Of a stretch of DNA of 64,000 nt, positions 19,891-60,700 are shown piece after piece. Under the pieces are notes generated by a model. That model saw only the letters and a program-made list of their open reading frames with translations, was not told where the DNA came from and ran no database searches. The stretch is from Patescibacteria group bacterium (GTDB lineage: Bacteria; Patescibacteriota; Saccharimonadia; Saccharimonadales; JAZKJC01). The stretch covers positions 1,064 to 65,063 of the forward strand of contig JAZKJC010000002.1 of the NCBI GenBank assembly GCA_040384565.1, given 5' to 3'. Within the stretch, counting starts at the first letter, position 1. Each line of letters starts with the position of its first letter. Position numbers and translations under genes: made by a program.

Positions 19891-19896
19891 ATAATC

Positions 19897-41925: not shown

Positions 41926-41947
41926 GTTATTTGAAATAAATAACTAG

Positions 41948-42280: not shown

Positions 42281-42287
42281 ACCCAGT

Positions 42288-42316
42288 ACTTTACCAAAGT
42301 AAAGTGTTTTTGTCAA
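42288..42316 (-). promoter_or_regulatory. Promoter TTGACA-17-TAAAGT, 7 nt before the ATG (leaderless-type)
   Basis: Read directly on the minus strand. Confidence 0.55.
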
Positions 42317-42393
42317 CAGTTAATTTTTATTACATTATTTTTATTTCTTGCTGGTGTCCTACTTCATTTCCGCATTTGGGCAACTTACTGTAA

Positions 42394-42696
42394 TTAGGCG
42401 ATGTTGCCTCTACTTTCGCGGCTGTGCCAGACACGGATTATTACGACCGTATCCCCGTCTGCATACATATATCTCAGCACATAGGCTCCTGCGCCGTAGG
42501 CCATAAACAGCTCACGCCTGCCAGTTTCATCTGGCATTGGACGACCTAGCCTGGGCGTAGTTTTAAGTAATTCCACTCCGCGCAAGATAGTTTCCGCAGC
42601 CCTATTAGCTGATGCGGGACTTTTGCCGTTTAAAAATGCATAAAGTCGTTCAACGCCACTAACAGCTTCTGGCAACCATCTAAGGGGCCTACCCAT
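42394..42696 (-). CDS. parE: ParE/RelE-family toxin
   Basis: 100 aa, ..WLPEAVSGVERLYAFL.. ..VVIIRVWHSRE.. Typical of a plasmid-stabilisation toxin. Confidence 0.75.
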   Translation of the reverse strand: MGRPLRWLPEAVSGVERLYAFLNGKSPASANRAAETILRGVELLKTTPRLGRPMPDETGRRELFMAYGAGAYVLRYMYADGDTVVIIRVWHSRESRGNIA

Positions 42697-42843
42697 GATA
42701 ACCTTTCAAGATAGAGGAGATGATCTTCGAGTTAAAACTGCTTATGGAGAAAGAAGCATACCTTTGGTACGTTGGACTGAGACAGAAGTAGTTTTGGCCG
42801 GAAAGGGCTGGTCTAGTTTGGGAGGTTATTATGGGTAGGACCC
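42684..42843 (-). promoter_or_regulatory. 21-nt inverted repeat (42684-42704 / 42823-42843, 19/21) bracketing the antitoxin-toxin spacer. The proximal arm covers the parE SD and ATG
   Basis: rc(42684-42704) is AGGTTATCATGGGTAGGCCCC; 42823-42843 is AGGTTATTATGGGTAGGACCC. Confidence 0.6.
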
Positions 42844-42845
42844 TT

Positions 42846-43118
42846 TCAATGTGGGGCACGGTTTGATGCCTTGCCACTCGCGAGCCCCTCAAGCCACCGC
42901 TCTACTTTATCGCCATCTATCGCGTTACCAGTAAGAACGTAGTGTTCCCAGCGCTCTAGATCTTCACTCTTTTCCTGCTCGTAGCGTTCTTCGCGCTCCA
43001 AATAATCTTCTACAGCCGTCCGCATCAGCCAATGAGGTGAACGTTTACGCTTCGCGCCCAAAGCCTTAAGCCGACTCTGAGTTTGATCATCCAATTTGAT
43101 ACCCTGCGTTGTAGCCAT
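42846..43118 (-). CDS. Ribbon-helix-helix (CopG/ParD-like) antitoxin
   Basis: MATTQGIKLDDQTQSRLKALGAKRKRSPHWLMRTAVEDYL.. RHH pattern upstream of parE. Confidence 0.7.
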   Translation of the reverse strand: MATTQGIKLDDQTQSRLKALGAKRKRSPHWLMRTAVEDYLEREERYEQEKSEDLERWEHYVLTGNAIDGDKVERWLEGLASGKASNRAPH

Positions 43119-43124
43119 AAAATT

Positions 43125-43153
43125 ATGGTAGCACTAGGTGCAACCTTTTACAA
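43125..43153 (-). promoter_or_regulatory. Promoter TTGTAA-17-TACCAT, 6 nt before the antitoxin ATG (leaderless-type)
   Basis: Read directly. A small GCAC-TAG-GTGC palindrome sits in the spacer. Confidence 0.4.
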
Positions 43154-43212
43154 CCACTACATAAACCTAAAATACCAGAGGCAAGAATTAATAACAGCGG
43201 CAGCTAAAGCTA

Positions 43213-43221
43213 TGTTAAAAT
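43213..43221 (+). promoter_or_regulatory. Extended -10 TGTTAAAAT, 6 nt before the ATG at 43228
   Basis: Read directly. Confidence 0.4.
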
Positions 43222-43227
43222 ATTTCT

Positions 43228-43464
43228 ATGGCTAAAGATAATAATTACGTTGGCGTATTGCTGGAAGATATCGAATCAAAATTGAAAGGTATTGCTGAAG
43301 CGGTTGCCGATTTAAACAAGAAAGCTATTCAAGCAGACCAAAGACTAAATAAAATTGAAGAAAACACCAACCTGATTCCAGCTGTTCAAGCAGCAATTAA
43401 AGACCAGACCAAACAGCTTAATACTCAAGGATTGCGAATCGCAGACCTAGAAACAGCCCGGTAA
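43228..43464 (+). CDS. Hypothetical 78-aa coiled-coil-like protein
   Basis: ORF track. Heptad-like charged/hydrophobic pattern. Confidence 0.45.
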   Translation: MAKDNNYVGVLLEDIESKLKGIAEAVADLNKKAIQADQRLNKIEENTNLIPAVQAAIKDQTKQLNTQGLRIADLETAR

Positions 43465-43700
43465 CGGTAGTGAGGGGGTAATTAGGCCAGGCTTCATTGC
43501 TCTAGAACTCCGCGCTTAGGTGCTAACTATGGTTCGGTACAGCATGGTTAACTGGATTTGCTAAGTTTTCATATGCAAAAATTGATTGCGGCCGACTGGC
43601 AGGCTATTCAAGAATTTATTGACCGCAACGTGAATCTGCTAAAATACCTGAGCTGGCCAAGAAAGTAATCTTGCTGCGGTCAGCCACAACTCTCAACTAA

Positions 43701-44039
43701 ATGAATAACAAAACTAAATTTTTTGATTCAAGATTAAAGTGGCTATTAACCGCATTAGCTGTCAACATCGTTTTATTTATTTGGCTACAAACAACTTCTG
43801 GCCATTCAAGTGCCGTTTGTAGTCCAACCCTTGCAAGTAATCTCCATATATTCTTTGTAGTCTTAATGATGGGCTTAACTTCGTCATACTGGTTTGTAAG
43901 GTTTATATTTTGGCCAAACGGCCCAAAAAATCAGCTGTCTTATAAATTAGGTTGGATAATGGGAGCTTTTATAGGTTTGTTTTTTGCAGGCGTATTATAT
44001 TTTGGCCTTGGAATTATTGCGTGGGGAACATGCTTCTAA
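43701..44039 (+). CDS. Hypothetical membrane protein (112 aa)
   Basis: Three or four hydrophobic helices. Confidence 0.45.
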   Translation: MNNKTKFFDSRLKWLLTALAVNIVLFIWLQTTSGHSSAVCSPTLASNLHIFFVVLMMGLTSSYWFVRFIFWPNGPKNQLSYKLGWIMGAFIGLFFAGVLYFGLGIIAWGTCF

Positions 44040-44131: not shown

Positions 44132-44233
44132 TTGGTGCCCTTGAAGCACTTTCATGCGAACTCCTTTTGGCTTGGCTTGACCAATTTATAAAGTCTTTTA
44201 GCCAGTATTAATACTACAAATTTAACAGCTTAG
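44132..44233 (+). repeat. Direct repeat copy 1 (about 100 bp)
   Basis: About 52/60 identity over the first 60 nt with 47350-47409; weaker similarity to the end. Confidence 0.75.
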
Positions 44234-44369
44234 AGGATACTTCTATCGAAGATTCAGGGGCAGTAGCACCCAACAAAACTGCAAATGCCTCTCCGGTTGG
44301 TTGGTTAGTGCACGCGCAAGGTTTGGAAAATATTTGTTGGTAATTTTAAACCTACTTACAGCAGTGTTC

Positions 44370-46601
44370 CTACAAAGCTACTGAGACGCTATTGGATGAC
44401 GGTGAATCGTTCTTTGCCGCGTCGTAAGCTACTACGTAATACGAATAAGTAGTGCCGGCTGTAAGCCCGGTATCGGTGAAATTCAGGCTAAAGGAATAGC
44501 CTGCTAGGCTAGTACTGGTGATTGTTTTACCCTTTGAGGTGGTGGAGGTACTGCGATAAATCTTATAGCCTGCTACGCCAACATTGTCTGTAGCGGCCGT
44601 CCAATTTAATGAAACCGAGTTGCTGGTTTTTGCGCCAACAACCAAATTCGTAGGTAGTGCTGGCGGTGTTATGTCATCATTTACCACCATAATGCTCTGG
44701 CACGGGGCACCAAACCACTCGTCCTGGCTTTTTTGATGCATCCGCCAGTCGAATTCATAACTGCCGGGAAGACTGGGTGCTGTCAAAGTAGCCGAAACAG
44801 TTGCTGACGCTCCAGTTGCTACATCGCCGTTTAGCGCAATACTGGCGGTTCCCCAAGTATTGCTGCTCGTCTGAGCATATACACCGCTTGACCAGGGATG
44901 TGGCACGACTTCGACCGAAGCAAGGTCATAATCGGCCGCTTTCCAGGCTTTGCTACCGGTATTTTTGATAACCATATTTGTAGTGAAACTCGACCCGGGC
45001 TTGACAGCCATGGGGGTGTTTTGCAAGCTACAGGCGGCATTGTTTGTACTAACAGATCTGCCATTGAATGCTACCCGCACCACTGCTTCGCCAGGGGTAA
45101 TTGATACAGCGGTTATGCTGATCCCACTAATCGGATCAGTAAAGGTCTTGCCTGTTTTCAGGCCAGCGTCGCGTGAACCACCCGGACCCAGTGTAGTTGG
45201 CGTGGTATCAATAATGTAGGTAGCCGCTGAACTCGTACAGTCAGCCGCTTGGCGTATGAGCACACCGTAATATTGTGATCGTTCAGGCTCAGTAGCGCTA
45301 GTGCGGCCATCAATAACCCCATACGGCTGGCGCAGCTCGACACAGTAATTAGGGTAATAGGTTTTACCTTTTGCAGGCTGAATAATCTTTAGCTGTTTGA
45401 CGCTGCTATCGCCATTTTCCAGTGGAGTTAAGCTGTAATCACCCGTCGCAGTTACGGTTTGAGTATTGGACGGTTGAAGCCATCCAAGCACTGACTTGTG
45501 CGTCGCGTTCATTTGTAAGTAATTACTATTGCCCATGACGTTATAGGCGTCTTGATATTCTATGTCCTTGCAGTTGGCCGACATTGCTACCGGCAAATTA
45601 TTTGTATCGTAGCAAAATCTGCCATTGGCATGCCTAGCACCGAAGTTGTGTCCCAATTCATGAGCAAGTACCCATGGGTATATACCTCTGGAGTTGACAA
45701 TACCCGCATAGGCAGTATTACCGCCCACTTGAGCTATCCCGCTAAAACCGCAATTCGTTGCGGCGTAATTGCCGTCGGGCCAAAGGTAAACAAAATTGTC
45801 GTAACCGGAAAGATCATGGCCTTCAGCAGTAGCCATCTCATATGCTTCTGTCCTCCAGTAGCCATAAAAACAGTTCTTGGAAGTGGTTGGCACGGCGTAC
45901 CAGCCGAATACGTCTCCATCCGGGTTAATTTTGCCAGTGAGGCTGCGCTCGTTATATGACGTTTCGCGGTAGTAGAGATTAACTGGTGGTTCCTCCGACC
46001 CAGGATTCAACCATTCTGTGCCAAATATTTGACGTTTAATAGTAGCGACGTCGACTGGTTTAACGGGGTTGTCTGCCCATGTGATCAAAATAACGGCGGT
46101 TTTGCGCGGGCTGTGATGGGGCAAGGCTTTGTAGGTTACTTCAAAATCGCTGCCACCCCTGGAAGCCAACTTAATGGTGCTCCCATCCTTGCGGCCACGG
46201 ATGTTAACTTTTGAGCCGGTAAGTAGTTCTGGTTCGGGCCCAGCGAATTCCAACCGGTATTTTTGACCGTCAGCTGCCTTTAGATTAAATTCTTCATGGT
46301 GTTCCCATTTTGAAACGTCAGGCTCTGGTTTGCCATCTTTGTCTAGTTTGAAGTTATCAAAACCCAGAACTTCAAGCTCACCAGATAGACTGACTAGTTG
46401 GGAAGAGTTGGGTATAGGCGCTGCAAACGACCTATATAGTGCGTATGTTCCAATAGCTGCGAACAACAGCACAAACAATAGCAGGTGAGTGCGCTGGAGA
46501 TTATGCGCCCTTTGAAGTACGAATTGCTTTATGCGCAAAAAACGAGAGCCAGATGCTGGGTGTGTTTGTTGTGGTTGTTTGTCTTCTTTATGGTCGGTCA
46601 T
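44370..46601 (-). CDS. Membrane-anchored secreted metzincin-type zinc metalloprotease with a C-terminal FN3 domain
   Basis: N-terminal TM helix; HELGHNFGARH is a perfect HExxHxxGxxH; C-terminal ..SVSLNWTAATDNVGVAGYKIYRS.. FN3. Confidence 0.8.
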   Translation of the reverse strand: MTDHKEDKQPQQTHPASGSRFLRIKQFVLQRAHNLQRTHLLLFVLLFAAIGTYALYRSFAAPIPNSSQLVSLSGELEVLGFDNFKLDKDGKPEPDVSKWEHHEEFNLKAADGQKYRLEFAGPEPELLTGSKVNIRGRKDGSTIKLASRGGSDFEVTYKALPHHSPRKTAVILITWADNPVKPVDVATIKRQIFGTEWLNPGSEEPPVNLYYRETSYNERSLTGKINPDGDVFGWYAVPTTSKNCFYGYWRTEAYEMATAEGHDLSGYDNFVYLWPDGNYAATNCGFSGIAQVGGNTAYAGIVNSRGIYPWVLAHELGHNFGARHANGRFCYDTNNLPVAMSANCKDIEYQDAYNVMGNSNYLQMNATHKSVLGWLQPSNTQTVTATGDYSLTPLENGDSSVKQLKIIQPAKGKTYYPNYCVELRQPYGVIDGRTSATEPERSQYYGVLIRQAADCTSSAATYIIDTTPTTLGPGGSRDAGLKTGKTFTDPISGISITAVSITPGEAVVRVAFNGRSVSTNNAACSLQNTPMAVKPGSSFTTNMVIKNTGSKAWKAADYDLASVEVVPHPWSSGVYAQTSSNTWGTASIALNGDVATGASATVSATLTAPSLPGSYEFDWRMHQKSQDEWFGAPCQSIMVVNDDITPPALPTNLVVGAKTSNSVSLNWTAATDNVGVAGYKIYRSTSTTSKGKTITSTSLAGYSFSLNFTDTGLTAGTTYSYYVVAYDAAKNDSPSSNSVSVAL

Positions 46602-46651
46602 TTTTAATATGTTAAATCACTCTTTATTAATAGCAAAACTGCTTTTATTGT

Positions 46652-47173
46652 TCATGGTGTTGTAGGGCACTCTGTTGCATTTTGGGCGCACACGCGGAAA
46701 CTTACGCTGGCAAGTATGGTATCACGCTGTTTAGTGCGCGGAGCATCCCCCCATTTGACGTCAGCCGTACAGTCAGCAGCTCCGCTGACCCAAGCCGGAC
46801 TGGCAAGACCAAACACACCGTCGTCCAATACCCCAGCAAAATAACCTTCGGTACCTTGCGAAACAAGTACACCGTTCTGGTAGCATTTGAGATTGACAAA
46901 CGGCTTAGCCGTCTGAGTGCTTGAGACATTAAAACGTATTTTATCGTTCCAGTTTAAAACCCCATTGCTATCTTTGTCAGTTACCAATATTGGCTGGCTG
47001 ATGGTTGTAGTGCCAGCTGGACCACCACCTCCACCTCTGGGTGCTGCAAAACCCTGCAAGAGGGTAAATGCGGCCATAGCGCCAAACAGCAAGGCGAAAA
47101 TAGTAATTTGCAAACCCGAGAAGCTTTTGCGGCGCTGTAAAACGTTTGTTTTCTTGAGTTTTTTGATTGCCAT
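46652..47173 (-). CDS. Hypothetical secreted or anchored 173-aa protein (4 Cys)
   Basis: N-terminal TM helix followed by FAAPRGGGGG. Co-oriented and immediately upstream of the metalloprotease. Confidence 0.55.
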   Translation of the reverse strand: MAIKKLKKTNVLQRRKSFSGLQITIFALLFGAMAAFTLLQGFAAPRGGGGGPAGTTTISQPILVTDKDSNGVLNWNDKIRFNVSSTQTAKPFVNLKCYQNGVLVSQGTEGYFAGVLDDGVFGLASPAWVSGAADCTADVKWGDAPRTKQRDTILASVSFRVCAQNATECPTTP

Positions 47174-47349
47174 GGTTATAAAGCTATCCTATTAAGTTTA
47201 GTCTGCTTTGAAATAAACATAGCACTATCAATATGGGTTGTCAATAACACATAAGCAACATGGTAGCGGGGGCAGGACCAGATGGTTAATAAGGTTTAAC
47301 GTCCTGCTGGCTTTTTCAAAGTAAAGAATTAAAAAATAGGGTGTCCAGA

Positions 47350-47451
47350 TTGGTGCACTTGAAACACTTTCATACGAACACCTTTTGGCCTGGCTAGACC
47401 AAATTATGAAAGCATTCAATAGTAGTAATGATACAGATTTAACAGATTAAA
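47350..47451 (+). repeat. Direct repeat copy 2 (about 100 bp)
   Basis: See 44132-44233. Overlaps the 3' end of the XRE gene region. Confidence 0.75.
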
Positions 47452-47665
47452 ACAAGTCTAGGGATTTGATCTTCAGCACTCTCATGATGCTTTGTAGCTT
47501 TTCAAACGACGGATTTTCCTGGCCGCGCTCAATCCGTGCGTAGTAGTTGACATGCATATTCGCTTTGTCTGCGACGTCTTGTTGCTTCAAACCAGCTTTC
47601 TCACGAGCTTGTCGAAAGGTTTCGCCCAAGGCTTTATGTGTTCTGTCATATTCACCACTAGTCAT
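47447..47665 (-). CDS. XRE-family helix-turn-helix transcriptional regulator
   Basis: ..REKAGLKQQDVADKANMHVNYYARIERGQENPSFEKL.. HTH_3 pattern. Confidence 0.85.
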   Translation of the reverse strand: MTSGEYDRTHKALGETFRQAREKAGLKQQDVADKANMHVNYYARIERGQENPSFEKLQSIMRVLKIKSLDLF

Positions 47666-47723
47666 ATACGGATACTATACCATCCTATTCTGGAGTAAGA
47701 CTATTGTCTTTTTTGGGCTCGTT

Positions 47724-47737
47724 AAGCGCTAGTGCTT
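47724..47737. promoter_or_regulatory. 14-bp near-palindrome AAGCGCTAGTGCTT in the XRE/PGT divergent region (candidate operator)
   Basis: 6 of 7 positions pair. Overlaps the CTTGCA -35-like hexamer. Confidence 0.4.
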
Positions 47738-47773
47738 GCAATAGTGGAATCTTAAAGTACACTTATGTAATAT

Positions 47774-48538
47774 ATGAGTAGAATTGCCAACACAGACTAT
47801 GGTCATCTAGTGGCTCGACTCGCAGAGCCTGAGTATTTTGACCCCAGTAATATGCCTACAGGACGTGAGTACTTACATAGTGAGGCAGAAGTGGTGTTTG
47901 ATGCAATGATGTCTATTGCTGTTTTGCCAATTACGAGCTTGCCGACTATAGCCGGTGCTGCTGCAATAAGACTTATTGATCATGAGCACCCCATCTTTAC
48001 TCAAGCTCGGATTGGCTACATGAGCAAGCCTTTTACAATTTTCAAGCTTACCACGATGCCGGGTGTACCAGAGAATACTCACAGTAATGGGCGATATAAT
48101 GATCCGCGCAGAAGCCAGCTAGGCCGACTTTTAAGCCTTTTAAGAATTGATGAGTCACCACAGCTGCTTAACGTAGCCCGCAGAGAGATGTCTATTATTG
48201 GACCACGTCCCTTACTTGGATCAATATTGGATCAGGCTCGTTATTTTGTTGGCCCAAAAAAAGCAGATGAATGGGTTAAGGTCCGCTCACTGGCATTGCC
48301 TGGAATTTTTGATGACTTTAGCAATCAACATCACGGCTATAAGTTAAGCGAAGATGAGGGTGAATTATGGCGTCAGAGGATTGCCATAGAGGAGGCTTAT
48401 ATTTTAGAGAAAGCCTCTTTTCAAGAGGATTTGCGGATAGTACTTGCTACTGTAAAGTTATTTGGAACTACAGCCATAAAACATTCCGGAAAGCTGCTCC
48501 ATGGTGTACGGTCTCGGGCTAGAAAGGCTAAGAAATAA
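47774..48538 (+). CDS. Small monotopic phosphoglycosyl transferase (Bac_transf)
   Basis: ..PIFTQARIGYMSKPFTIFKLTTM.., ..IDESPQLLNV.., ..MSIIGPRPL.. Paralogue of the N-terminal half of 16378..17691. Confidence 0.8.
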   Translation: MSRIANTDYGHLVARLAEPEYFDPSNMPTGREYLHSEAEVVFDAMMSIAVLPITSLPTIAGAAAIRLIDHEHPIFTQARIGYMSKPFTIFKLTTMPGVPENTHSNGRYNDPRRSQLGRLLSLLRIDESPQLLNVARREMSIIGPRPLLGSILDQARYFVGPKKADEWVKVRSLALPGIFDDFSNQHHGYKLSEDEGELWRQRIAIEEAYILEKASFQEDLRIVLATVKLFGTTAIKHSGKLLHGVRSRARKAKK

Positions 48539-48541
48539 AAT

Positions 48542-49225
48542 ATGGTAGATATTGCTAGGTCGGAATGTACTCGTACGCATACATATAGTAGAGGTGCAGA
48601 AATATTTAGACTTGCTGCCGAAAGTTTTGGAGTAACACTTCCGAGCGAACAGTTAGGAGAATGGCAATTCCTAATAAAAGCAGCGTTTACTCTCGATAAT
48701 ATTTTAGATAGTGATATGCCGTTATCTGAGCGTGAAAAAGCTTTTGACGAAGGCGTAGAAGCACTGTTGTATCCCTTAGCTGAACAATGGGATGATCGGA
48801 AGATCAATAGGGTCGTCAGTGCTGCGGATCGTGTCAAAAACATTGCTGCTGAAAAACGTGAGGCCGTTTCTGCGAGACTGCTTGGTAAGTTAGCCGTACA
48901 TGAGGGTGAAGAAACGGCACGCTTCTTACAGTTAGATAATCCAGCTGGTAGCAATGCCGATGACTTCAATACATGGTTAAAATATCTACTTAGATTTGGC
49001 GTACCAATTGATACCGCTGTGGATTTACGAGAAGACTATGGGCATAACCTTACACAAGTTACACCTACACGCCTAAACAGTGCCGTTATTGCTTCATTTG
49101 CCATGCCGTGGGCTAGGCAGTTATTAACTAGAACACCTAGTCGCTTATACCGTCCGCTATTTGCAGCTGCTCGAGCAGTTACGCAAGACACGGCTAAGGA
49201 TACTGTACTCCAATCTACTCCTTAG
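48542..49225 (+). CDS. Asp-box helical protein homologous to the C-terminal half of 16378..17691 (isoprenoid-synthase-like?)
   Basis: GAEIFRLAAESFGV..AAFTLDNILDSD.. and FNTWLKYLLRFGVPIDTAVDLREDY align to GAAMFHAVAEGFGV..AARCLDNLVDEQD.. and FNKWLRLFAKTGYLADTVLDARKDF. The start is 4 nt after the PGT stop. Confidence 0.7.
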   Translation: MVDIARSECTRTHTYSRGAEIFRLAAESFGVTLPSEQLGEWQFLIKAAFTLDNILDSDMPLSEREKAFDEGVEALLYPLAEQWDDRKINRVVSAADRVKNIAAEKREAVSARLLGKLAVHEGEETARFLQLDNPAGSNADDFNTWLKYLLRFGVPIDTAVDLREDYGHNLTQVTPTRLNSAVIASFAMPWARQLLTRTPSRLYRPLFAAARAVTQDTAKDTVLQSTP

Positions 49226-49281
49226 TTTGTGTACCAATGCTAGGTATCTGACCAGTCCCGGACAGGTTGGTCAAACAACGA

Positions 49282-50301
49282 TTATAATATTGCGGCCGGA
49301 TCTTCACCTTGCACAGTTGTTTCTTTAAGCGCCGCGGCCAGTTCTTTGCCTGTTATCTCTTGGCACCGTTGCCAAATTTCTTGTTTCAAAAGTTCAATAT
49401 CACTCGTATTTGAATATTCGACATACCCGTAATAGACCCCGGCAGCAAGTGGTGAACCAACTTTCATATCAATGGATCTTGCGCGTCGATTTGTACGAGG
49501 TATAACGTAGGCGCTGGATTGACTATCAAAGTAGAGGTTAAAGCTAAGCCCTAGTCTTAATAATTCATCTAGAATAGCCGTTGTTCGGTCTAGTTTTGCA
49601 CCTTTAGACTCGCCGTCTATCTTATAGCAGACTGAAGGGTGCTCTGTTGATGCTGACACCACAACACCGTCTTTTTCTTTAAGCGGCCGATATTCAGATG
49701 AGAATATAGGTAATACTTCATCAAAAAGAGAGATATGTGCATGTTCAGGTATTGTGGCGCCGCTGCCATGAAGCTGGATTGCCGCACCGGCAAATTTAGT
49801 TCGTTCCATAAAGTCAAAGATTAGACCGTACTGGTTGCGTGTAAATAGTTCCCTATGCTGTCTTACGGTCAAAAGTAATTGCCCGTCAAAATATGGAAAG
49901 TTGTTAAAGCCAAGAGCGAATGAGTCATTAAATTTGTCCATAAAGTCACTGTCAGCATCTTTATCGGGTAGGGTGATCACATTATCTCGAGATTCTAACA
50001 CTCCGCACAATGAGCATGGGCAGGCAGGTCGCTGGTCATATACCGCTTTACGGTATGCGAAAGTGGGAATATAGCGCACTTTTCCTGCAAGTCCATCAAT
50101 ATCTACTGGTCGATCAACAATTTCATCACGATTCCAATACACATGCCCCCCCAAACGGGCTTCTTCCAAACGGGCAAGCAATACATGTTTTAGTCCTTGC
50201 AATGCTGTTGCGGCATGGGGAGGTATACCTTCGGACAACCTATCTGATGTTGTGAAGGGATCTAGAATTTCAAACGTATCAGGCTTTAATTGCTCCGTCA
50301 T
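49282..50301 (-). CDS. GalT/HIT-superfamily nucleotidyltransferase or phosphorylase-like protein
   Basis: ACPCSLCG Cys cluster, FNNFPYFDGQLLL, IPEHAHISLF (HxHx motif). Confidence 0.55.
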   Translation of the reverse strand: MTEQLKPDTFEILDPFTTSDRLSEGIPPHAATALQGLKHVLLARLEEARLGGHVYWNRDEIVDRPVDIDGLAGKVRYIPTFAYRKAVYDQRPACPCSLCGVLESRDNVITLPDKDADSDFMDKFNDSFALGFNNFPYFDGQLLLTVRQHRELFTRNQYGLIFDFMERTKFAGAAIQLHGSGATIPEHAHISLFDEVLPIFSSEYRPLKEKDGVVVSASTEHPSVCYKIDGESKGAKLDRTTAILDELLRLGLSFNLYFDSQSSAYVIPRTNRRARSIDMKVGSPLAAGVYYGYVEYSNTSDIELLKQEIWQRCQEITGKELAAALKETTVQGEDPAAIL

Positions 50302-50363
50302 AAGTAATAATTACTATACAAATGCCATTTAATCAAATATTACGAATGTGAAGTTAAAAACTA

Positions 50364-50657
50364 TCATTCTTCAGCTGCAAGCTTCTTAATGTAACCAGTT
50401 CTAGACTCTTCGACCAGTGCAGTGTAGTGGTCAAGAGCAGCATCGGTGACAGATACTACACCCGCGATTTCACCTAATGAGCGATAAAAGTGTCTCGCAC
50501 CTGGTGACATAACATCTGTTGAAGGAGTTTTATGATTTGTGTTTAATCCTTCTGCTTCTTGATGAACCCTATCTACGTCTTCAAAACTGCCAGCACCAAT
50601 AAGTATCGGCTCACCGCCGTGAAGACCATAGTATATTTCGACCTGGTTGGCTACCAT
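50364..50657 (-). CDS. Hypothetical 97-aa protein
   Basis: ORF with its own leaderless-type promoter, upstream of the GalT-like gene. Confidence 0.5.
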   Translation of the reverse strand: MVANQVEIYYGLHGGEPILIGAGSFEDVDRVHQEAEGLNTNHKTPSTDVMSPGARHFYRSLGEIAGVVSVTDAALDHYTALVEESRTGYIKKLAAEE

Positions 50658-50663
50658 ATAATT

Positions 50664-50692
50664 ATGTTAACATATTTGTTAATGGACGTCAA
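50664..50692 (-). promoter_or_regulatory. Promoter TTGACG-17-TAACAT, 6 nt before the ATG (leaderless-type)
   Basis: Read directly. Confidence 0.5.
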
Positions 50693-50795
50693 AGTTCAGG
50701 TGTCATTTACTGGGCTGGTTAAGTGCGAAGTCAGGAGGCTAGTTCGTTTGGCTCTTTCATCTTGCTATCAGGATTTTATCTATCGCAAACAGAGC

Positions 50796-51614
50796 TCAAG
50801 CCTCCTCCCAAATCTCCCCTCTAACCCCCAGTGCTCTTAATTTGTCTACGGTTGCAAACCGTACATGTGGCCTGTCATCATCGTCATGCTCCCATATATC
50901 CGCCAGCAGGCTTCTAGTACGGCGCTTGGCATAGATTAAGTCAGTTGTCCTTGGGCATACAAACAGGATTATTGGTAATGCTACGTTGGTTTCACTCTCC
51001 CAATCACCATCTTCCAGGTATTCCACGTAATCTTTAAGCCGTTTCTTTATACGGTAACGAGGCAGTGTTGGATCAAATACTTCCAGTAGGTAGCTGTTGG
51101 TAGTGGTTTCTTCTCCAGTGGAGCTATCTAACTCCTCTTTGGAAAAACAAAGATGCGGATGCACCAGTTCACTATCAGCTAGAAAGTGGAAGTAATTGTC
51201 CTGAAGGTAGTTGGCTTCAGTCTCGTAGTAGTAGCGAGCAGTATCTGTTCTGCCCTTTTCTAGCGTAATGCAGCAATCGGCAATGAGCATACACCGGTCA
51301 ATAAATGTTTGGCTGCGAGATGGTTCACGGTAGCGTTTACGAACTTCGTGGATTGGATGCTTATCCCCTGTTTTTAGGAAGCGTACGCCATTAATGTTGA
51401 TGTAGTAGATAGCGGGCTTGGTTTTCTCGGCGAAGTCGGTAGAGTAGATCCAAGCTACGTATTGTTTTTCTCGGAGATCTTTTAGCCAGACGTTTATTCT
51501 TTTATAGTCACTATGGTTCATTAGTGTTTGAATTTGGATTCTATTTAAGAATCTATGGGTATAAAGAAGTTTTAGGATTGTTTGTTGCTTAATAGTTATG
51601 CTAGGTAGTTTCAT
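50796..51614 (-). CDS. Replication-relaxation family protein (wHTH N-terminus)
   Basis: ..QQTILKLLYTHRFLNRIQIQTLM.. resembles plasmid/ICE Replic_Relax proteins. Intact paralogue of the pseudogene 34549..35384. Confidence 0.65.
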   Translation of the reverse strand: MKLPSITIKQQTILKLLYTHRFLNRIQIQTLMNHSDYKRINVWLKDLREKQYVAWIYSTDFAEKTKPAIYYININGVRFLKTGDKHPIHEVRKRYREPSRSQTFIDRCMLIADCCITLEKGRTDTARYYYETEANYLQDNYFHFLADSELVHPHLCFSKEELDSSTGEETTTNSYLLEVFDPTLPRYRIKKRLKDYVEYLEDGDWESETNVALPIILFVCPRTTDLIYAKRRTRSLLADIWEHDDDDRPHVRFATVDKLRALGVRGEIWEEA

Positions 51615-51754
51615 TGAATGTATAGTTATATGGTGATAGTTTGTTTAGTATCTATTTTGGAGCTGCTTTCATTTGCCAAACCCTCCTACACCGTATACTT
51701 GCAAGGGTAGAAAACACAATGAGTTTACAATAACTCTTTAGATATTGCTACTTT

Positions 51755-51776
51755 TTGTCCTAGCAGACTAGGACAA
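51755..51776. promoter_or_regulatory. Palindrome TTGTCCTAG-CAGA-CTAGGACAA
   Basis: 9-bp perfect arms. Confidence 0.4.
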
Positions 51777-51817
51777 TATAAAATCGTCAGAAAGCTGGGG
51801 ATAACCGCTTGCAATAC

Positions 51818-51851
51818 ACATTATATGGATAGTATACTATCCATATAATGT
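51818..51851. promoter_or_regulatory. 34-bp perfect palindrome ACATTATATGGATAGTA|TACTATCCATATAATGT overlapping a TTGCAA..TATACT promoter-like region
   Basis: Verified base by base. Lies 16 nt upstream of the ATG at 51867. Confidence 0.6.
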
Positions 51852-51866
51852 TAGTGGAGGGTATCC

Positions 51867-52148
51867 ATGCAGCGGTCAAACCAAGTAATTGAACCGACAA
51901 AATTCACCGGCTTAGCTGATGCTCTTCAGCCTATTGATGATGCTTTGCGACGCATATTCAGCACCTCGGAAGAGGAAACTAGGTTGCAGCGAACCCGCAG
52001 GATTATGGGTAGCGCGATTGACGATGTTTCTGACGAAGATCTGGAAATCTATATAACAGAAATTCAGTATCTGATTGATGCTTGGTTTGATGAGTTTGAA
52101 CGTCAGGCTTTTGACGGCGTAACCTTAAAGCAATTGATCCAGGAATAG
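51867..52148 (+). CDS. Hypothetical acidic 93-aa protein upstream of the recombinase
   Basis: GGAGGG SD. The stop is 4 nt before the recombinase ATG. Confidence 0.55.
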   Translation: MQRSNQVIEPTKFTGLADALQPIDDALRRIFSTSEEETRLQRTRRIMGSAIDDVSDEDLEIYITEIQYLIDAWFDEFERQAFDGVTLKQLIQE

Positions 52149-52152
52149 CGAC

Positions 52153-53694
52153 ATGGAAAACGCTGCTTTCACTCCTAAAGTTACAGCAAAGCAGTGTGCA
52201 GTTATTTACCTGCGTGTATCAACCGAGGAACAAGTAGATAACTATTCGCTAGATACTCAGGCTGATCTTTGCCGTAAAGAAGCAGAGCGCCGGGGCTTAA
52301 CAGTTATGGAGATTTTTCGGGAGGAAGGACGGTCTGCTAAAACAATTCGTGAGCGACCCACTTTAATTGAGCTTTTAGGGTATTGTCGAAAGAACCGGAA
52401 AGACATTGCTGCTGTTATCGTCTACCGATTAGACCGCATATCTCGTCAAACAGCCGATTACTTAGCCATTCGCAAAAAGCTAGTTGAATCAGACATTACG
52501 CTTATCTCTGCTAGCGAGCCAACTGGAGACACACCCACAGAACGTTTTGTCGAAACAATGCTGGCAGGTTTTGCCCAAATGGATAACGACGTCCGTGGTG
52601 AACGTTCTAGAAACGGTATGAAGGCACGATTTATGAGTGGCCTACCTAATGGAAGCCCCTCACTCGGTTATTTAAAAGAGAATGGTTACGCCGTCAAAGA
52701 CCCTGAAACATTTAGTGCTTTGCAAGTCGCCTGGCAACTTATGGAAACCGGCACAAAAAGCCTGCGGGAAATGGCTAAGATTCTGAATGATCAGGGCATT
52801 ACTGATAGGCGTAAGGGCTATAAAGATTCGCCAATACGAGCCCAAACTTTGAGTGGTATCTTTCGTAATAAGTTTTACGCTGGCAAGGTAGTATCCAAGA
52901 AGTATGGGCTGGAAGTTCAAGGCCAGCATACTCCTATGGTCACCGAAGAAATGTTTTACCGCGTACAGGCGATCCTAGACGGTAGAAACCGCAATGCATC
53001 ACCTACGCTTGCCAGACGCAGCCTGGAAAGCCCTGACTTCCCATTAAGACGTATAATTATCTGCAATAACTGCGATCATTCATTCAGCGGAGCATGGAGC
53101 AAAGGGAAACGACAGAAATATGCATACTATTTCTGCGTGAAGCGCTGTAGCTCGTCGGTAACGATCAGTGACATAGAAACTACCACCGATGAACTGTTAA
53201 GGGATATAACGCTTAAAGATGAGTCTGTGAAGCTTATTAACGCCTTCTTGCGCCGTACGTACTATTTGCAGATTGACTCGCTGAAACAAAAACGTGACCA
53301 TGCGGACATTGAACTGCAGAAGATCTACGAAACCCGCCAGGCACTCATACAGAAGAATTTGGATGGTGTCTACTCTGACGACATCTTCAAAGAGCAGAAT
53401 AAAGTCCTGGAAGAAAAGATCAAAGCTATCCAAGCGGCTAAGAATGATACGGTGATAGAGAAATACAACCTAGAAGCTATTAGCAAGTTTATCCAGGAGA
53501 AGTTTACTAACCTTAATGAAACCTTTTCCACCTCTGAGCTGACACTTAAACGCGTCCTCATGTGTTCACTATTCCCCAAAGGATTACGTTGGGGCTATCC
53601 GGGGTATGTGAACACCCAAATCAGTCCATTCTACCGAAGTTTTCTGGCTCTTCAAGGACGTCAAGTCCAGATTGGTGCGGATGAAAGGACTTGA
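52153..53694 (+). CDS. Large serine recombinase
   Basis: ..AVIYLRVSTEEQ..YSLDTQ.. catalytic Ser region, ..VYRLDRISR.., recombinase domain, Cys cluster (CNNCDH..YYFC..RC), C-terminal coiled-coil region. Confidence 0.88.
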   Translation: MENAAFTPKVTAKQCAVIYLRVSTEEQVDNYSLDTQADLCRKEAERRGLTVMEIFREEGRSAKTIRERPTLIELLGYCRKNRKDIAAVIVYRLDRISRQTADYLAIRKKLVESDITLISASEPTGDTPTERFVETMLAGFAQMDNDVRGERSRNGMKARFMSGLPNGSPSLGYLKENGYAVKDPETFSALQVAWQLMETGTKSLREMAKILNDQGITDRRKGYKDSPIRAQTLSGIFRNKFYAGKVVSKKYGLEVQGQHTPMVTEEMFYRVQAILDGRNRNASPTLARRSLESPDFPLRRIIICNNCDHSFSGAWSKGKRQKYAYYFCVKRCSSSVTISDIETTTDELLRDITLKDESVKLINAFLRRTYYLQIDSLKQKRDHADIELQKIYETRQALIQKNLDGVYSDDIFKEQNKVLEEKIKAIQAAKNDTVIEKYNLEAISKFIQEKFTNLNETFSTSELTLKRVLMCSLFPKGLRWGYPGYVNTQISPFYRSFLALQGRQVQIGADERT

Positions 53695-53756
53695 ACCTTC
53701 ACGCCTTACGGCACCAGCTCCTAAAACTGGCGTGTCTACCATTCCACCACATCCGC
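53673..53756 (-). tRNA. tRNA-Leu (anticodon UAG), CCA encoded
   Basis: Hand-folded. Acceptor GCGGATG/CATCCGC, 3-bp D stem, anticodon stem CCAGT/GCTGG with loop TTTAGGA, long variable arm GCC-GTAA-GGC, T arm GAAGG-TTCAAGT-CCTTT, ACCA. Confidence 0.88.
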
Positions 53757-55220: not shown

Positions 55221-57284
55221 TTAATTTAGGTTTGTTACTAATCTTGCCGATTTGACCCTTGCGGCCAGCTCAGGGTATTTTAGCAAATTTTCTTTCTTAT
55301 CTATAAATTCCTGAGCGCTATGACGGGCTTCTGATATTAGTTTCGTATCTGTCAATTTTGCAATCCTAAGGTCTAATTGACCATGCTGCAGTGTGCCGTA
55401 AATTGCACCCGGACCACGTAGTTCCAAATCGTACTCTGCGAGTTTAAATCCATCTGAAGAATGTTCGAGCGCACGTAAACGTGGTGATGGTGGCTGGCTG
55501 TCACTAATTAGCAAGTAGCAGTAGCCCTGGTGCTCACTACGACCTACCCTGCCACGCAGTTGATGTATTTGAGCCAAGCCAAACCGTTCTGGATTTTCGA
55601 TTAGCATAACAGTGGCGTTGGGCACATCAACACCGACTTCTATTACTGTAGTTGAAATAAGTATGTCCAGCTCGTGTTTTACAAACGCCTGCATAATAGC
55701 GTCTTTCTGTGCTGGTTTTAGCTTGCCATGCAGCAAGCTAACTCTGCGGTGCTTAAACACGCCATTAGTAAGTTCCGCATAGATTTGTTCCACAGATTTT
55801 GCCGGCATAAGCTCGGAATCGCTAATTAGCGGGCAGACTACAAACACCTGACGCCCGGCTGAGATTTCTACATCTATTTTCTCATATACTTTTGATCGCT
55901 CGTTAAGTGTAATCAGATCAGTTTTAATTTGTTTACGGTTAGCGGGTTTACTGCCAATGACAGAAATATCTAGCTCGCCATAAAGCGTCAGTGCCAGGCT
56001 GCGCGGAATAGGCGTAGCTGTCATAGACAGCACATGGGGCATGTGACCGGCCTTAGCCTGTAGCTTTTTACGCTGATCCACGCCAAAACGGTGTTGCTCA
56101 TCAATTATTACAAAACCGAGTTTGTGCATATCTACTTTTTCCTGGAGCAGGGCGTTGGTGCCAATCATAAAACGTATATCGCCGTTGGCAATACGTTTAT
56201 GTGCCTCATGCTTTTGGGATGGCTTAAGTCCGCCCACTAGCAGACCTACCTCGCCCGCCATAGCTACTGGCTCCAAAAGCTTATGTACAGTCTCGGCGTG
56301 TTGCCGGGCCAATAGTTCGGTCGGTGCCATTAGAGCCACCTGATAACCCTGTTTGATCGCCATTAGTGCTGCCATTGCTGCCACTACAGTTTTGCCCGAC
56401 CCGACATCACCCTCAATTAACCGGTTCATCGGTTGAGAACGTTGCATATCCTGATAGATTTGCCAGACAACCCGTTTTTGGTCAGGTGTTAGGTGAAATG
56501 GCAAATGCTTAACAAAGCTCCTGGCTAGCTTTTCGTCAAACGGGATAGAAACGGTATGTTCTTGTTGTAGCTCATATTTGTTTAGCAATGCTGCCAGAGT
56601 AAGCTCAAATACTTCCTCAAAGCCTAATCGTTTTTTAGCAGCTAACAAATCCTGTTGACTACTAGGAAAATGTATTTGCTCGACCGCATCACTCCTACTG
56701 TACAAGGACAGTCCTTGTACAAGCCATTTAGGGAGAGTTTCGGGTAAATCTTGAATCAAAGGCAAAACTTCACGAATAGTTTTTCTGATCTGAGTAGATG
56801 TTAGCCCTTTTGTTTCTTTATATATTGGCACAATCCTCGCAGTACTAACTGGGAAGCTGCTAACAAGTTCTATTGATGGGTTCTGAATACTAAGTCGCTG
56901 GCGCTTAAGACTAAAATCACCAGAAATATAGTATTCCTGATCACTCTTTATTGATGCCGCTCTGTAAGGCTGATTAAACCAGATAAGCCGCACGCTGCCG
57001 GTATCATCACTGGCAGCGGCTTCGGTTATATGCAATCCACGCCGGGCATATCGGCCTGATGATTGTTTTATAAAAGCTTTGATTGTGACATTGCCGGGCC
57101 GGATTTGGTTGATCAGTTGTACTTGTGAGTAGTCATCATATCGCCGCGGATAGTAATCAATCAATTGACCAATTGTTTTAATGCCTAAAATGGAGAATTT
57201 CTTTGCAAGCTCAACCCCAACACCTTTTACGTTAGTCAATGGGCTATGTAATGTCATGTGTTGTGTAGTATAAAACAATGCCAC
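55221..57284 (-). CDS. recG: ATP-dependent DNA helicase RecG
   Basis: 687 aa, wedge domain plus ..GDVGSGKT.., DEQHRFG, ..QLRGRVGR.. helicase motifs. Confidence 0.93.
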   Translation of the reverse strand: MALFYTTQHMTLHSPLTNVKGVGVELAKKFSILGIKTIGQLIDYYPRRYDDYSQVQLINQIRPGNVTIKAFIKQSSGRYARRGLHITEAAASDDTGSVRLIWFNQPYRAASIKSDQEYYISGDFSLKRQRLSIQNPSIELVSSFPVSTARIVPIYKETKGLTSTQIRKTIREVLPLIQDLPETLPKWLVQGLSLYSRSDAVEQIHFPSSQQDLLAAKKRLGFEEVFELTLAALLNKYELQQEHTVSIPFDEKLARSFVKHLPFHLTPDQKRVVWQIYQDMQRSQPMNRLIEGDVGSGKTVVAAMAALMAIKQGYQVALMAPTELLARQHAETVHKLLEPVAMAGEVGLLVGGLKPSQKHEAHKRIANGDIRFMIGTNALLQEKVDMHKLGFVIIDEQHRFGVDQRKKLQAKAGHMPHVLSMTATPIPRSLALTLYGELDISVIGSKPANRKQIKTDLITLNERSKVYEKIDVEISAGRQVFVVCPLISDSELMPAKSVEQIYAELTNGVFKHRRVSLLHGKLKPAQKDAIMQAFVKHELDILISTTVIEVGVDVPNATVMLIENPERFGLAQIHQLRGRVGRSEHQGYCYLLISDSQPPSPRLRALEHSSDGFKLAEYDLELRGPGAIYGTLQHGQLDLRIAKLTDTKLISEARHSAQEFIDKKENLLKYPELAARVKSARLVTNLN

Positions 57285-57776: not shown

Positions 57777-60700
57777 TTACTTCTTATTCGTACTTGCTAC
57801 GACAGCCGTATTGCTGGCCGGCCCTTGACGGTTATTGGTATCTAGAGCTATGACGTAGTAACTGTAGCGGGTGTTGGGTTTGGCAGTAGCGTCACCGTAA
57901 ATAGTGGCCGGTCCGTTGGTAGTGCCTAGTTCCGTGAATTGGCCAGTCGTGCCTACCTGACGGTAGATTTTGTAGCGGGCAATGTTGTCAGTGGCAGCGG
58001 TCCAACTTAAGTTAACTTGGTTGGAGCTAATAATAGTAGGTATTAGTTTGGTGGGCGCAGTTGGCGGGGTGGTGTCACCGCCGGTGGTAGGCGCAGCTGG
58101 AGTAGCGACGGTTTTGGTGGTGGTTGGGTCGGATAATAGGCTTGAGTTGTCCTTAGCTATTACGTAGTAGTAATAGGTCGTGCTGGCGCTGACTGAATCG
58201 GTGTAGCTGAGATTGGTTGTAGTGGCTATGTTCATGAATTGGCCAGTAGTACCGGTTTGGCGGTAGATTAAGTATTCCTTGATGCCGCTGGCGTCTGTGC
58301 TGGCTGTCCAGGTTAGTTTGGCCTGGGTAGCGCTCAAGGCAGTGGCGGCGAAGCTGCCAGGAGTTGAGGGCCGCGTTGTATCTGGAGGAGCCTGAGTAGT
58401 AGCAGTCGCAGTGGAGCTGAGACCGCTGGGGTTGCCGGCAGCGTCAAGGGCCTCAATAGCATAGCTGTAAGTCGTGCCACCAGTTACGGCGCTGTCACTA
58501 AAGCTGGTGCCAGTTATATTGTTGGTTAAGATGTCGGTTGGGGTACCGGTGCCTAGGCGTCGGTAGACCCGGTAGCTGATGACACCAACAACGTTATCTG
58601 TGCTGGCTGTCCAATTAACGTTTACGAGCGTAGGACTGGCAGCTGAGGCTGACACGTTATCAGGTATGGAAGGACGGGTGGTGTCGGTTGGAGGGGGTGG
58701 GGGCGGCGTGACTGTGCCAGCATCGCCCAGGAAGAGGCCGGCCAAAACGGCATTAGTGCTAGTGCCGGCATTGTTTTGGGTTGTAATTGTCAGTGTACCG
58801 CCCGCGGGGACATTGATCGGAGCGTTAATCCAAACACCTTGATTAAAGGATGAAGTAATACTAGCGGCCCTGGGGCCAGATCCGTCATTAACGGTGACGG
58901 TCTGGCGGCGGGCGATAGAGTCCTGATCCAGGGCGTAGAGGTGCAGATTGCCGCTGTAGGCTGAGCTGAAGTTCAGCTTGACGTCGAACTGGGTGCCGGC
59001 GTAGACCGCGGTAGACTTGCGGATGGTTTGGTCTGGGCTTTGCAAAGCTCGGGTTTCGGCACTGGACATAGTCCATTGGTGGCGTTGGGCGCCGTTGATA
59101 GTCATAGTAACGCCTGCCGGTAGTGATATGAGGTCGGTGTCACCGGCATTCCATTCGAATAATACATACCCATCCTTACCGTAAGTGCCGACCCAGTTGC
59201 CTTGGGGGGATTGGCTGGTAGTCAGGGCGGCGGCTGGTTGCGGGGTGGTTAGGGTGACGGTGTTGGAATTACTGGAGACATTGCCTGCCCCGTCACGGGC
59301 TTTGACATAGTAGCTGTAAGTAGTACCACCGGCCAGGCCGTTGGCGTCACCGTAACTGGTAACCAGGCCCACGGTAGCGATCTTGACGTTATTACGCCAG
59401 ACTTCGTAGCCGGATAAGCCGGAGCCGCCAGTGTCGGTACTGGCTGTCCAGGACAGGTTGATCTGGGTGGCACTGACAGCCGAGCCGGATAGGGTTGGGG
59501 TGGATGGCGCGGTAGTGTCCGGAGCTTGAGGGGTGGTGATGGTCTTTACAGCAAAGTCCGAAAAGTTTCCGGCCGCATCCTTGGCTCGGACTGAGAAAGT
59601 GTAGGCAGTGTTGGCTGTAAGGCCGGTGTTGTTGTACGTGGTAGTCGGACTATTGACCGTAGCAATTAAGCCAGGCAGGCCACCGGAATTACGATAGACA
59701 TAGTATTGGGTGACGCCCACATTGTCGGTGGAAGCGGACCAACTGAGGTTGACTTGAGTGGCACTGACGGCAGTGGCGTTGAAGTTGCCCGGTATTGTAG
59801 GCGGGGTGGTGTCGGCAGGAACTGGCGGGGTGACGCTTAGTGGTGTAGACTTGTCGGATTCAGCGCTGTCATAGTCTATAGCCGATACTTGATAGGTATA
59901 GGTATTTGGTGACGCAACAGCTGTGTCGGTATAGGTTAGCTGGGTGGTATAGGTGTAAAAATTGCCATTGCGGTAAATGCGGTATTCTTTCACGCCCTTG
60001 TCGTCCGTACTGGCGTTCCAGGCTAGGGCAATGGAGTTAGATGTCACACTGGTGGTGCGCAGATTAGCCGGAACTGTGGGCGCAGTATTTGGTGCAGCGA
60101 TGGTTAGTGTCTTGCTTAACGAGTTGTTACTCTCGTTGCTTTCATTGGGGATAGCGTTTGAAGGGTCAACCACGGCCAGTACAGCATGCGACCCGGCAGT
60201 TGCCGTCCAGGTGCTAACACCACCCGGGCCATCTACGCTGGCCAAGGTACGGCTTTCGCCTGGAGCTAATGGCCAGCCGGCGTTACCATTCCAGCCTGCC
60301 GAAGTCCCGTCGACGCTGAACGCAATAACGAGACCCTCAGGCGTAGAAGCCGTGCCAACATTTTTAACGGTGGCACTGACGGTTACCAGGTTGCCGGACT
60401 GTGGTGAAGCAGGTGTCCAGGTGATGGAGTCCGGGACCACGATTAGGTCAGGCTGACTCGTAGGAGGGGGTGGGTCAGTGATCCCAATGGGAACAAGCCA
60501 GCATAAATAGTTGTCACCCCAACTATGCGGATCACTGGACTCAAATACTAGTACGCAGTCGGTATCTTCATTGTCAGGATTACCAGCATAACTCCAGTGA
60601 AGCCCTATATATGTATTAGAACAGAGCACATTATCGTTCCAGGTGTAAGGATCCGCGGGTTCAGTAATATTGGTACAGTTATACTCTACCGTTTTATCGG

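Follow-up and report, generated by a model that had tools for sequence, protein, structure and literature searches.

The window analysed here, a 64,000-nucleotide stretch of contig JAZKJC010000002.1 from a Patescibacteria group bacterium, carries a gene for a large serine recombinase (LSR) that runs into a convergent tRNA-Leu(UAG) gene. We put a probability of roughly 85% on the conclusion that this gene belongs to a 6.3-kb integrative plasmid-like element (47343-53678) inserted at the 3' end of tRNA-Leu(UAG), and that the attachment site of the element, attP, lies inside the LSR gene. Sequence comparison establishes the anatomy of the element, both of its junctions (attL and attR), and the conservation across a family of the tRNA overlap, its reading frame, the left element end and a recombinase tail encoded there. 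Coordinates are collected in Table 1, and the related loci that were compared are designated by L-numbers (L002, L084 and so on).

The recombinase gene ends within an intact tRNA gene

The tRNA-Leu(UAG) gene matches Rfam RF00005 at 58.4 bits (gathering score 29) and is intact, with a 7-bp acceptor stem and an encoded CCA. The LSR open reading frame (ORF) overlaps it by 22 bp (53673-53694), and its last four codons and stop codon (DERT, stop) are the antisense strand of the tRNA. The initial annotation had described a 513-aa LSR ending inside a convergent tRNA-Leu gene, and ARAGORN, Rfam, the ORF itself and Pfam all confirm it. Its further idea, that an element integrated into the tRNA 3' end and supplied the replacement sequence, holds for the site of integration; as to the replacement, the element gives only the last few nucleotides of the tRNA, and the greater part of the 22-bp overlap comes from the host tRNA, whose antisense strand is read up to the first stop codon.

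By its domains the 513-aa protein is a bona fide large serine recombinase. Pfam identifies Resolvase (PF00239, E=8.3e-32, residues 16-160) and Recombinase (PF07508, E=1.3e-12), followed by a zinc ribbon (PF13408) that is weak at 21.8 bits, under the 25.3 cut-off, with its cysteines in place (CNNC...CVKRC). This is the serine-integrase domain order of Resolvase, Recombinase and zinc ribbon with a putative coiled coil, as far as sequence can tell. The catalytic motif YLRVSTEEQ is present, the best PHROG match is an integrase (3.6e-83), and in the PDB the protein matches the catalytic domain of TP901-1 integrase, with the C-terminal domain of A118 integrase aligning to residues 196-380.

To the right of the tRNA lie housekeeping genes, an RsmD-like methyltransferase and RecG. 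A contig identical in RsmD and tRNA, L001, is present in SRR26324625. The order tRNA-RsmD-RecG is kept in L002, L007 and L008, and the DNA on the LSR side differs; conserved flanks on both sides in all relatives, which would have spoken against an element, were thus not what we found. We also considered whether the tRNA gene might be carried by the element, and rejected this because the tRNA-RsmD-RecG synteny persists where the element is lacking.

Conservation of the overlap across Patescibacteria

More than 1000 LSR homologues were found, the best 120 all at least 58% identical, and the genome loci belong to Saccharibacteria, Berkelbacteria, Microgenomates, CPR2 and other Patescibacteria. 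About 85 loci entered the count of tRNA overlaps. The LSR 3' end is overlapped by a convergent tRNA in 70 of them, always in one frame (xxT GGT GCx), and because so many homologous loci share this fixed frame the overlap is not a chance read-through. An encoded CCA is present in 62 of the 70 (xxT GGT ...), and the targets comprise 25 anticodons for 11 amino acids. Many LSR C-termini in databases can accordingly be read as antisense tRNA: ADERT (stop), GTPDRIRTYDLW.., GAPEGIRTPD.. and GAGEETLTLDLFLGKEAL (stop).

Targets change among close relatives. LSRs at least 70% identical to that of the window target Leu(UAG), Leu(CAG), Gly(GCC) or Arg(CCG), and LSRs 88-91% identical to it occur in another host context (L083, L086). 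Many genomes hold two or more LSR copies, and truncated LSR stubs beside tRNA-Leu are common. In L084, a tandem array at tRNA-Leu(CAG) (11521-21220) includes a second element with a DNA methylase, a ResIII helicase and an LSR of its own, only 27% identical to the window LSR, which ends ..KLGADERT (stop) in tRNA-Leu; this second element has the same AAGTC-N5-TGGTGC arm.

Element ends and attachment sites

A repeat search recovered GTCCAGATTGGTGC, 14 nt long and identical in both copies, as a direct repeat at 47343-47356 and 53665-53678. The left copy is the longest match to the 75-nt junction within 52 kb upstream (the runner-up is 10 nt), and by our own arithmetic the chance expectation for such a 14-nt match is about 0.002-0.01. 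The repeat at both ends therefore bounds the element. The initial annotation had been unable to locate this far junction, which can now be placed; its observation that long direct repeats are lacking stands, the repeat being 14 nt only. Three lines of evidence, independent of one another, mark the left copy as attL. In L084 and L085, whose LSRs are 88% identical to that of the window, nucleotide homology to the window ends exactly at 53678. Beyond this point lies the left end of another element, with a second LSR and a tRNA-Leu 9.6 kb further on, which is a tandem array. L002 keeps the tRNA but lacks the 6.3-kb block. At the other end, the DNA that starts just inside 47356 has the sequence of a conserved element end.

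A long displaced tRNA 3' fragment (31-mer, up to 3 mismatches) was not found; the displaced tRNA fragment at the left end is only 6 nt, inside the 14-nt repeat. A search of the left flank of attL for a remnant of the LSR 3' end gave nothing better than shuffled sequence. In the 13 loci having both ends, attL and attR share the first 5-8 nt of the cognate tRNA 3' end (TGGTGC, TGGTGCC, TGGTAGCC or TGGTCG, for targets Leu, Gly, Glu, Pro, Ala and Gln), and sharing between the two sites is limited to 5-14 nt. Counted from TGGTGC, the encoded CCA end of the tRNA, the shared stretches of the 13 loci intersect at +2..+5, or approximately tRNA positions 71-74. The crossover therefore falls within GTGC, in the last nucleotides of the acceptor stem, the discriminator or C74.

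The T-loop hexamer TCGAAC lies at +18..+23 in the tRNA, and a T-loop-like copy of it at +23..+28 in the P' arm of the element, an offset of 5 bp. For the LI (A118) integrase, the motif bound by the zinc ribbon domain (ZD) was modelled 5 bp further out in attP than in attB (PMC3783163), and the TCGAAC offset reproduces this outward shift.

A recombinase tail encoded at the opposite end of the element

The core corresponds to LSR codons 506-509. With the two element ends joined at the core, the LSR frame runs on across the reconstructed attP and stays open for 30 more codons (..QIGA-LETLSYEHLLAWLDQIMKAFNSSNDTDLTD, stop), stopping where the convergent XRE gene stops. The circular form thus specifies 509 residues plus a 30-aa tail (539 aa), and the integrated form 509 residues plus DERT (513 aa). 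Once the element is integrated, a stop codon at 47337, four codons upstream, closes the tail frame, which makes the tail translatable only from a circular or tandem junction. Because the LSR frame continues across attP, the full 539-aa enzyme is encoded only by the circular form.

The core-adjacent DNA forms a class across loci, TGGTGC-CCTTGA-GCACTTTC-TTCGAACACCTTTTGG, and the tail itself has the protein consensus G-A-L-[DEN]-x-L-x-F-E-H-L-L-x-W-L-D-x-[LI]-x-x-x-[FY], with the conserved pattern ALE-L--EHLLAWLD---K-F. A hidden Markov model (HMM) of the tail detects 26 copies, distributed over 22 loci. Every copy is on the same strand as the LSR, and only one, in L011, does not lie upstream of it. 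The tail is amphipathic and conserved, and would have a role in the circular-form enzyme.

Two loci have two successive tail copies upstream of a single LSR (L019 at 1020 and 2369, L016 at 764 and 1890). The L019 copy at 2369 is broken by stop codons and the L016 copy at 1890 scores weakly; these double left ends look like further stacked or decayed elements at one tRNA.

Mobility and points against it

The initial annotation proposed an integrated small plasmid or integrative mobilisable element (IME), and this is supported by the context differences among relatives, by L002, by the tandem arrays and by the LSRs 88-91% identical to that of the window in another host context. L002 has the same tRNA/RsmD/RecG context and the 6.3-kb block is absent. 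A 10-N scaffold gap lies at L002 5337-5346; its flanks overlap by ACCC and match contiguous window sequence, so the join looks real, though the contig is a scaffold. In three independent assemblies contigs end on the core (L012 starts at -1, L061 starts at 0, L016 ends at +5), which is suggestive of branching assembly graphs at polymorphic junctions.

Several observations weigh against the integrative element as we describe it. The empty tRNA-Leu site anticipated in relatives was found only in part, since L002 retains a 77-bp remnant of the LSR 3' end and is not a clean empty site. A search for circular-junction sequences, proposed from the outset as a check, gave nothing usable: exact-junction scans returned 0 matches for attB and attP in metagenome contigs and 0 for attP in viral contigs, and the matches listed by a looser scan with P arm and core were all noise, none with an LSR. 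An attP-form protein or circular contig was sought and none was recovered; a protein search with the LSR C-terminus plus tail returned only truncated LSR remnants ending ..GADERT, and the 35-aa tail, searched exhaustively, matched nothing but tiny attL ORFs. With no excision products, we infer mobility and the role of the tail. The proposed segmentation by k-mers and GC left the element indistinct, with no boundary in tetranucleotide or GC composition (z <= 1.6). A dyad-symmetry scan of 15 reconstructed attP sites had no clear centre, nor did a positional logo of 62 attR sites, and for this reason we leave the crossover dinucleotide unnamed. The conservation of the tail could partly reflect constraint on a DNA site rather than on protein. 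Finally, eight LSR-like nucleotides left of the attL core imply integration beside an older relic, which makes the history of the locus composite.

Alternative explanations

The most serious alternative, which we nevertheless consider unlikely, is that the tail segment is a DNA recognition arm (P') only, never made into protein, and that the 513-aa or read-through form works in both states. By codon-position entropy, conservation at nucleotides +13..+33 extends to third codon positions, as it would in a protein-binding site, and integrated copies tolerate tails that come from the tRNA and range from 4 to about 70 residues. However, the LSR frame of the circular form necessarily reads through this segment, and 20 of 22 copies have no stop in it for at least 21 codons. 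Past the arm, tail codons 12-22 have a coding-like pattern, with second positions conserved, third positions free, an invariant Trp and hydrophobic periodicity, and the LSR of L084 that is 27% identical to that of the window has an analogous W-containing continuation.

A second alternative, improbable in our judgement, enlarges the element to a composite of about 9.5-11.4 kb reaching from 44.1 (or 42.3) kb to the tRNA, with 47343 an internal relic site. It draws on the island left of attL (44133-47342). Here another attL-type end retains an intact tail ORF, its DNA matching the end at 47350 at 81% identity, and is followed only by the genes for an M11-like metalloprotease and a secreted protein of 173 aa. 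Where the short L002 contig covers the island (window 46522-47238), the two are 97% identical, against about 75% for the housekeeping genes RecG and RsmD, and the island so appears horizontally shared; LSR arrays could in principle co-move. Against a composite, the island in L002 abuts tRNA-Leu and the 77-bp LSR remnant and the 6.3-kb block is missing, 47343-47450 is a complete attL-type junction with conserved XRE spacing, the genes at 39925-44039 (hisD to a 112-aa ORF, including a ParE module) have no homologue in related loci, and the tail HMM finds no tail or core signature left of 44133. We interpret 44133-47342, from its sequence features, as a probable older element of the same kind that lost its backbone. 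The present element would have integrated between the tRNA and this relic, which the eight LSR-like nucleotides fit. The leftward extension of cargo to about 42.3 kb suggested in the initial annotation is not supported and needs division: the XRE and phosphoglycosyl transferase cassette is inside the 6.3 kb, the protease pair belongs to a relic ending at 44133, and the ParE module (42.4-43.1 kb) can be tied to neither.

A cryptic prophage or phage satellite has very little to commend it. LSRs are classic phage integrases, 'integrase' is the best PHROG match here, and an XRE repressor with an operator resembles a lysogeny switch. However, Pfam and PHROG scans of 47343-53678 found no capsid, terminase, tail or transfer genes, the LSR relatives in IMG/VR are only 26-28% identical with no close relative among them, and the backbone partners are Replic_Relax and, in larger relatives (L084, L211), a DUF87/TrwB-like ATPase. 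Least credible of all is a domesticated, immobile recombinase, the LSR-tRNA pair being an old vertical feature of the chromosome such as a regulatory or inversion system: the near-universal arrangement, the host-like composition and the empty junction scans would suit it, but LSRs 88-91% identical sit in other host contexts and at other tRNA-Leu isoacceptors, LSRs sharing at least 70% identity differ in their target tRNA, cargo varies, tandem arrays, truncated remnants and several copies per genome occur, and the tail can be translated only from a circle.

Backbone and cargo of the element

The genes between the two junctions make the element plasmid-like or IME-like rather than a phage. The combination of Replic_Relax with an integrase, and of neither transfer nor virion genes in 47343-53678, is that of an integrative plasmid or IME. 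Both backbone genes proposed upstream of the LSR are present as described. The divergent replication-relaxation gene has homologues in 44 loci, with weak PHROG 'replication initiation' matches, and is a candidate for a plasmid-type replication or nicking function. The coupled acidic 93-aa ORF accompanies the LSR at nearly every locus. It has no family or fold match in Pfam, PHROG, NCBIfam or a PDB fold search, and its predicted structure is all-helical (pLDDT 67); it may be a directionality factor or regulator.

The palindrome between these two genes is identical or near-identical in L008, L010, L016, L019, L052 and L083, and is conserved better than the flanking genes, the LSRs of those loci being 70-90% identical. 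Most loci have analogous palindromes 300-410 bp upstream of the LSR start. In our view it is a candidate operator and may double as an origin. At the left end, XRE homologues occur in 22 loci; in the window, L006 and L028 the gene is 92-97 nt away from the core. The four cargo genes (47774-50657) have no homologue in the other 80+ loci, and PADLOC, NCBIfam and PHROG scans of the cargo identified only the sugar transferase and the XRE regulator, with no defence-system match.

Table 1. Features of the element, its junctions and the adjacent relic in the window
Feature	Position	Strand	Basis or remark
Relic lacking an LSR	44133-47342	.	Second attL-type end, protease and 173-aa protein
Relic attL-type end	TGGTGC 44133-44138; tail GALEALSCELLLAWLDQFIKSFSQY (stop) 44134-44211	LSR strand	Tail HMM
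M11-like metalloprotease, relic	44370-46601	-	
173-aa secreted protein, relic	46652-47173	-	
attL core, left GTCCAGATTGGTGC copy	47343-47356	+	Repeat search
Left element end (P' arm), tail GALETLSYEHLLAWLDQIMKAFNSSNDTDLTD (stop)	47352-47450	+	LSR frame across reconstructed attP
XRE-family helix-turn-helix regulator, 72 aa	47447-47665	-	HTH_3 1.6e-15; convergent with tail segment
Phosphoglycosyl transferase	47774-48538	+	Bac_transf 1e-29
227-aa ORF, cargo	48542-49225	+	
339-aa ORF, cargo	49282-50301	-	
97-aa ORF, cargo	50364-50657	-	
Replic_Relax (PF13814) gene, divergent	50796-51614	-	Pfam 40.9 bits against a cut-off of 25.3, E=3e-10
Perfect 34-bp palindrome with two divergent TATAAT boxes	51818-51851	.	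Between Replic_Relax and the 93-aa/LSR operon
Acidic 93-aa ORF coupled to LSR	51867-52148	+	Directly upstream of LSR in 78/81 loci
LSR, integrated form, 513 aa	52153-53694	+	Ends ..QVQIGADERT (stop)
attR core, right GTCCAGATTGGTGC copy	53665-53678	+	8 nt of LSR 3' end plus tRNA ..GCACCA-3' antisense
Host tRNA-Leu(UAG)	53673-53756	-	ARAGORN, anticodon tag; sole tRNA of the window
attR junction sequence			..GACGTCAAGTCCAGATTGGTGCGGATGAAAGG..
attL junction sequence			..AATAGGGTGTCCAGATTGGTGCACTTGAAACA..
attP junction sequence, predicted			..GACGTCAAGTCCAGATTGGTGCACTTGAAACA..
attB junction sequence, predicted			..AATAGGGTGTCCAGATTGGTGCGGATGAAAGG..

Larger relatives carry other cargo. L211 contains a reverse transcriptase with bAvd; in L211 (6092-13070) and L212, a left end whose tail is 91% identical to that of the window and a 72-aa XRE gene are followed in order by the DUF87/TrwB-like ATPase, a PIN protein and the reverse transcriptase with bAvd, the last pair likely a diversity-generating retroelement.

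Flanking genes

Left of the relic, a ParE toxin (PF05016, 1e-13) with a ribbon-helix-helix antitoxin-like gene just upstream (42394-43118) stands between the relic and a set of genes at 39925-42316 for histidinol dehydrogenase (E=2e-167), a HisG-like protein and a TrpR-family regulator. Patescibacteria are usually described as being without amino-acid biosynthesis, and the question of binning or horizontal origin of the his/TrpR genes on this contig is worth checking. About 500 bp left of the relic attL, an inverted 80-bp fragment (43578-43658) resembles the recG 3' end, being 82% identical to the recG end of L002 and 76% complementary over 41 nt to the recG end of the window itself at 55274-55314; it may be the trace of an old rearrangement or captured host DNA. 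At the other side of the window, a 2038-aa ORF (57777-63893) has a markedly higher GC content (0.52-0.55), strong GC skew, internal repeats spaced by about 300 bp and a tetranucleotide profile that sets it well apart from the remaining window sequence (z up to 10), and is probably a repetitive surface protein.

Relation to known systems

The window LSR shares its domain order with the phage serine integrases A118/LI, TP901-1, phiC31 and Bxb1, and the element shares with their systems a short attL/attR core and a P' motif displaced by 5 bp. Unlike these enzymes, it targets tRNA 3' ends, has attP in its own 3' coding end and resides on a small plasmid-like element of Patescibacteria, with the 93-aa protein as only a candidate directionality factor. 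Islander-type islands resemble the element in their insertion at tRNA 3' ends with regeneration of the tRNA, in an integrase gene beside the tRNA, and in tandem arrays and decayed relics at the same tRNA. The intact tRNA, displaced fragment and internal integrase that define an Islander are all found here. However, Islanders use tyrosine integrases, whereas the sole recombinase of this element is a serine recombinase, and the duplicated tRNA segment is 5-8 nt here as opposed to the usual tens of nucleotides.

Actinomycete integrative and conjugative elements (AICEs) such as pSAM2 and SLP1 are likewise small and tRNA-integrating, combining replication and integration and sometimes a single FtsK/TraB-like ATPase. 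They use tyrosine integrases in contrast to the serine enzyme here, and the window element has no transfer ATPase (compare L084 and L211). Changes of expression at an att crossing have precedents. In mycobacteriophage integration-dependent immunity the repressor is changed across the att site, losing a degradation tag, and in Tn4451 a promoter for TnpX is assembled at the circle junction; here it is the C-terminus of the recombinase itself that is swapped.

A further parallel is with the archaeal 'suicidal' integrases of SSV1, pTN3 and pT26-2, in which integrase, site and possibly directionality control form a compact module (PMC8371274). The same review states that only archaeal tyrosine recombinases have their target within the recombinase gene (PMC8371274). 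As in the window LSR, attP is inside the integrase gene, the target is a tRNA and the ORF is altered by integration. The suicidal integrases are tyrosine enzymes (Phage_integr_3) of archaea, and splitting of their gene leaves inactive N and C halves, whereas the bacterial serine enzyme loses a 30-aa tail and keeps its catalytic and DNA-binding domains.

To our knowledge, the mobile elements of the ultra-small bacteria of the candidate phyla radiation (CPR) are almost undescribed. A full-text literature search of incomplete coverage returned no description of LSR elements in CPR bacteria or of this design, and a large LSR atlas mentions neither tRNA targets nor Patescibacteria (PMC10083194). 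Both tRNA targeting by serine integrases and an attP inside a bacterial recombinase gene appear to be undescribed.

A model for integration and its implications

We propose that the LSR would recombine attP, in its own last codons, with attB, the 3' terminus of the tRNA, and that the tRNA 3' end would be the B' half-site bound by the LSR. As the crossover falls inside the LSR gene at the tRNA end, the tRNA is rebuilt with a few element nucleotides and the LSR gene is split. The element would still excise and replicate as a circle, with the Replic_Relax protein maintaining that circle. The tail would matter to the circular-form enzyme, in integration, while the XRE regulator and the palindrome would gate how the 93-aa/LSR operon is expressed. 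Control over directionality and expression may lie with the tail swap, the 93-aa protein and the XRE/palindrome pair.

It is possible, at odds somewhat worse than even, that this LSR clade reads generic tRNA features (the acceptor and CCA end, the T-loop and the 5-bp offset) and uses its embedded attP as a state switch. The use of generic features would explain the ease of retargeting. In such a switch the tailed, circular-form enzyme would be competent for integration and the tail-less form altered in directionality or stability, a suggestion that we put forward only tentatively.

If true, the window LSR would be a bacterial serine-recombinase counterpart of the archaeal 'suicidal' integrases, in a milder version, and would provide a testable model of directionality control through the swapping of a C-terminal tail. 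Independently of this, the closely related LSRs retargeted to 25 tRNA anticodon types are a natural data set for how LSR specificity is coded, and the family offers integration tools for organisms otherwise hard to manipulate genetically. The elements, often present in several copies per genome of about 1 Mb, carry surface-glycan genes, protease genes and even a likely diversity-generating retroelement. Given this abundance and cargo, they are probably a main route of gene exchange in CPR bacteria.

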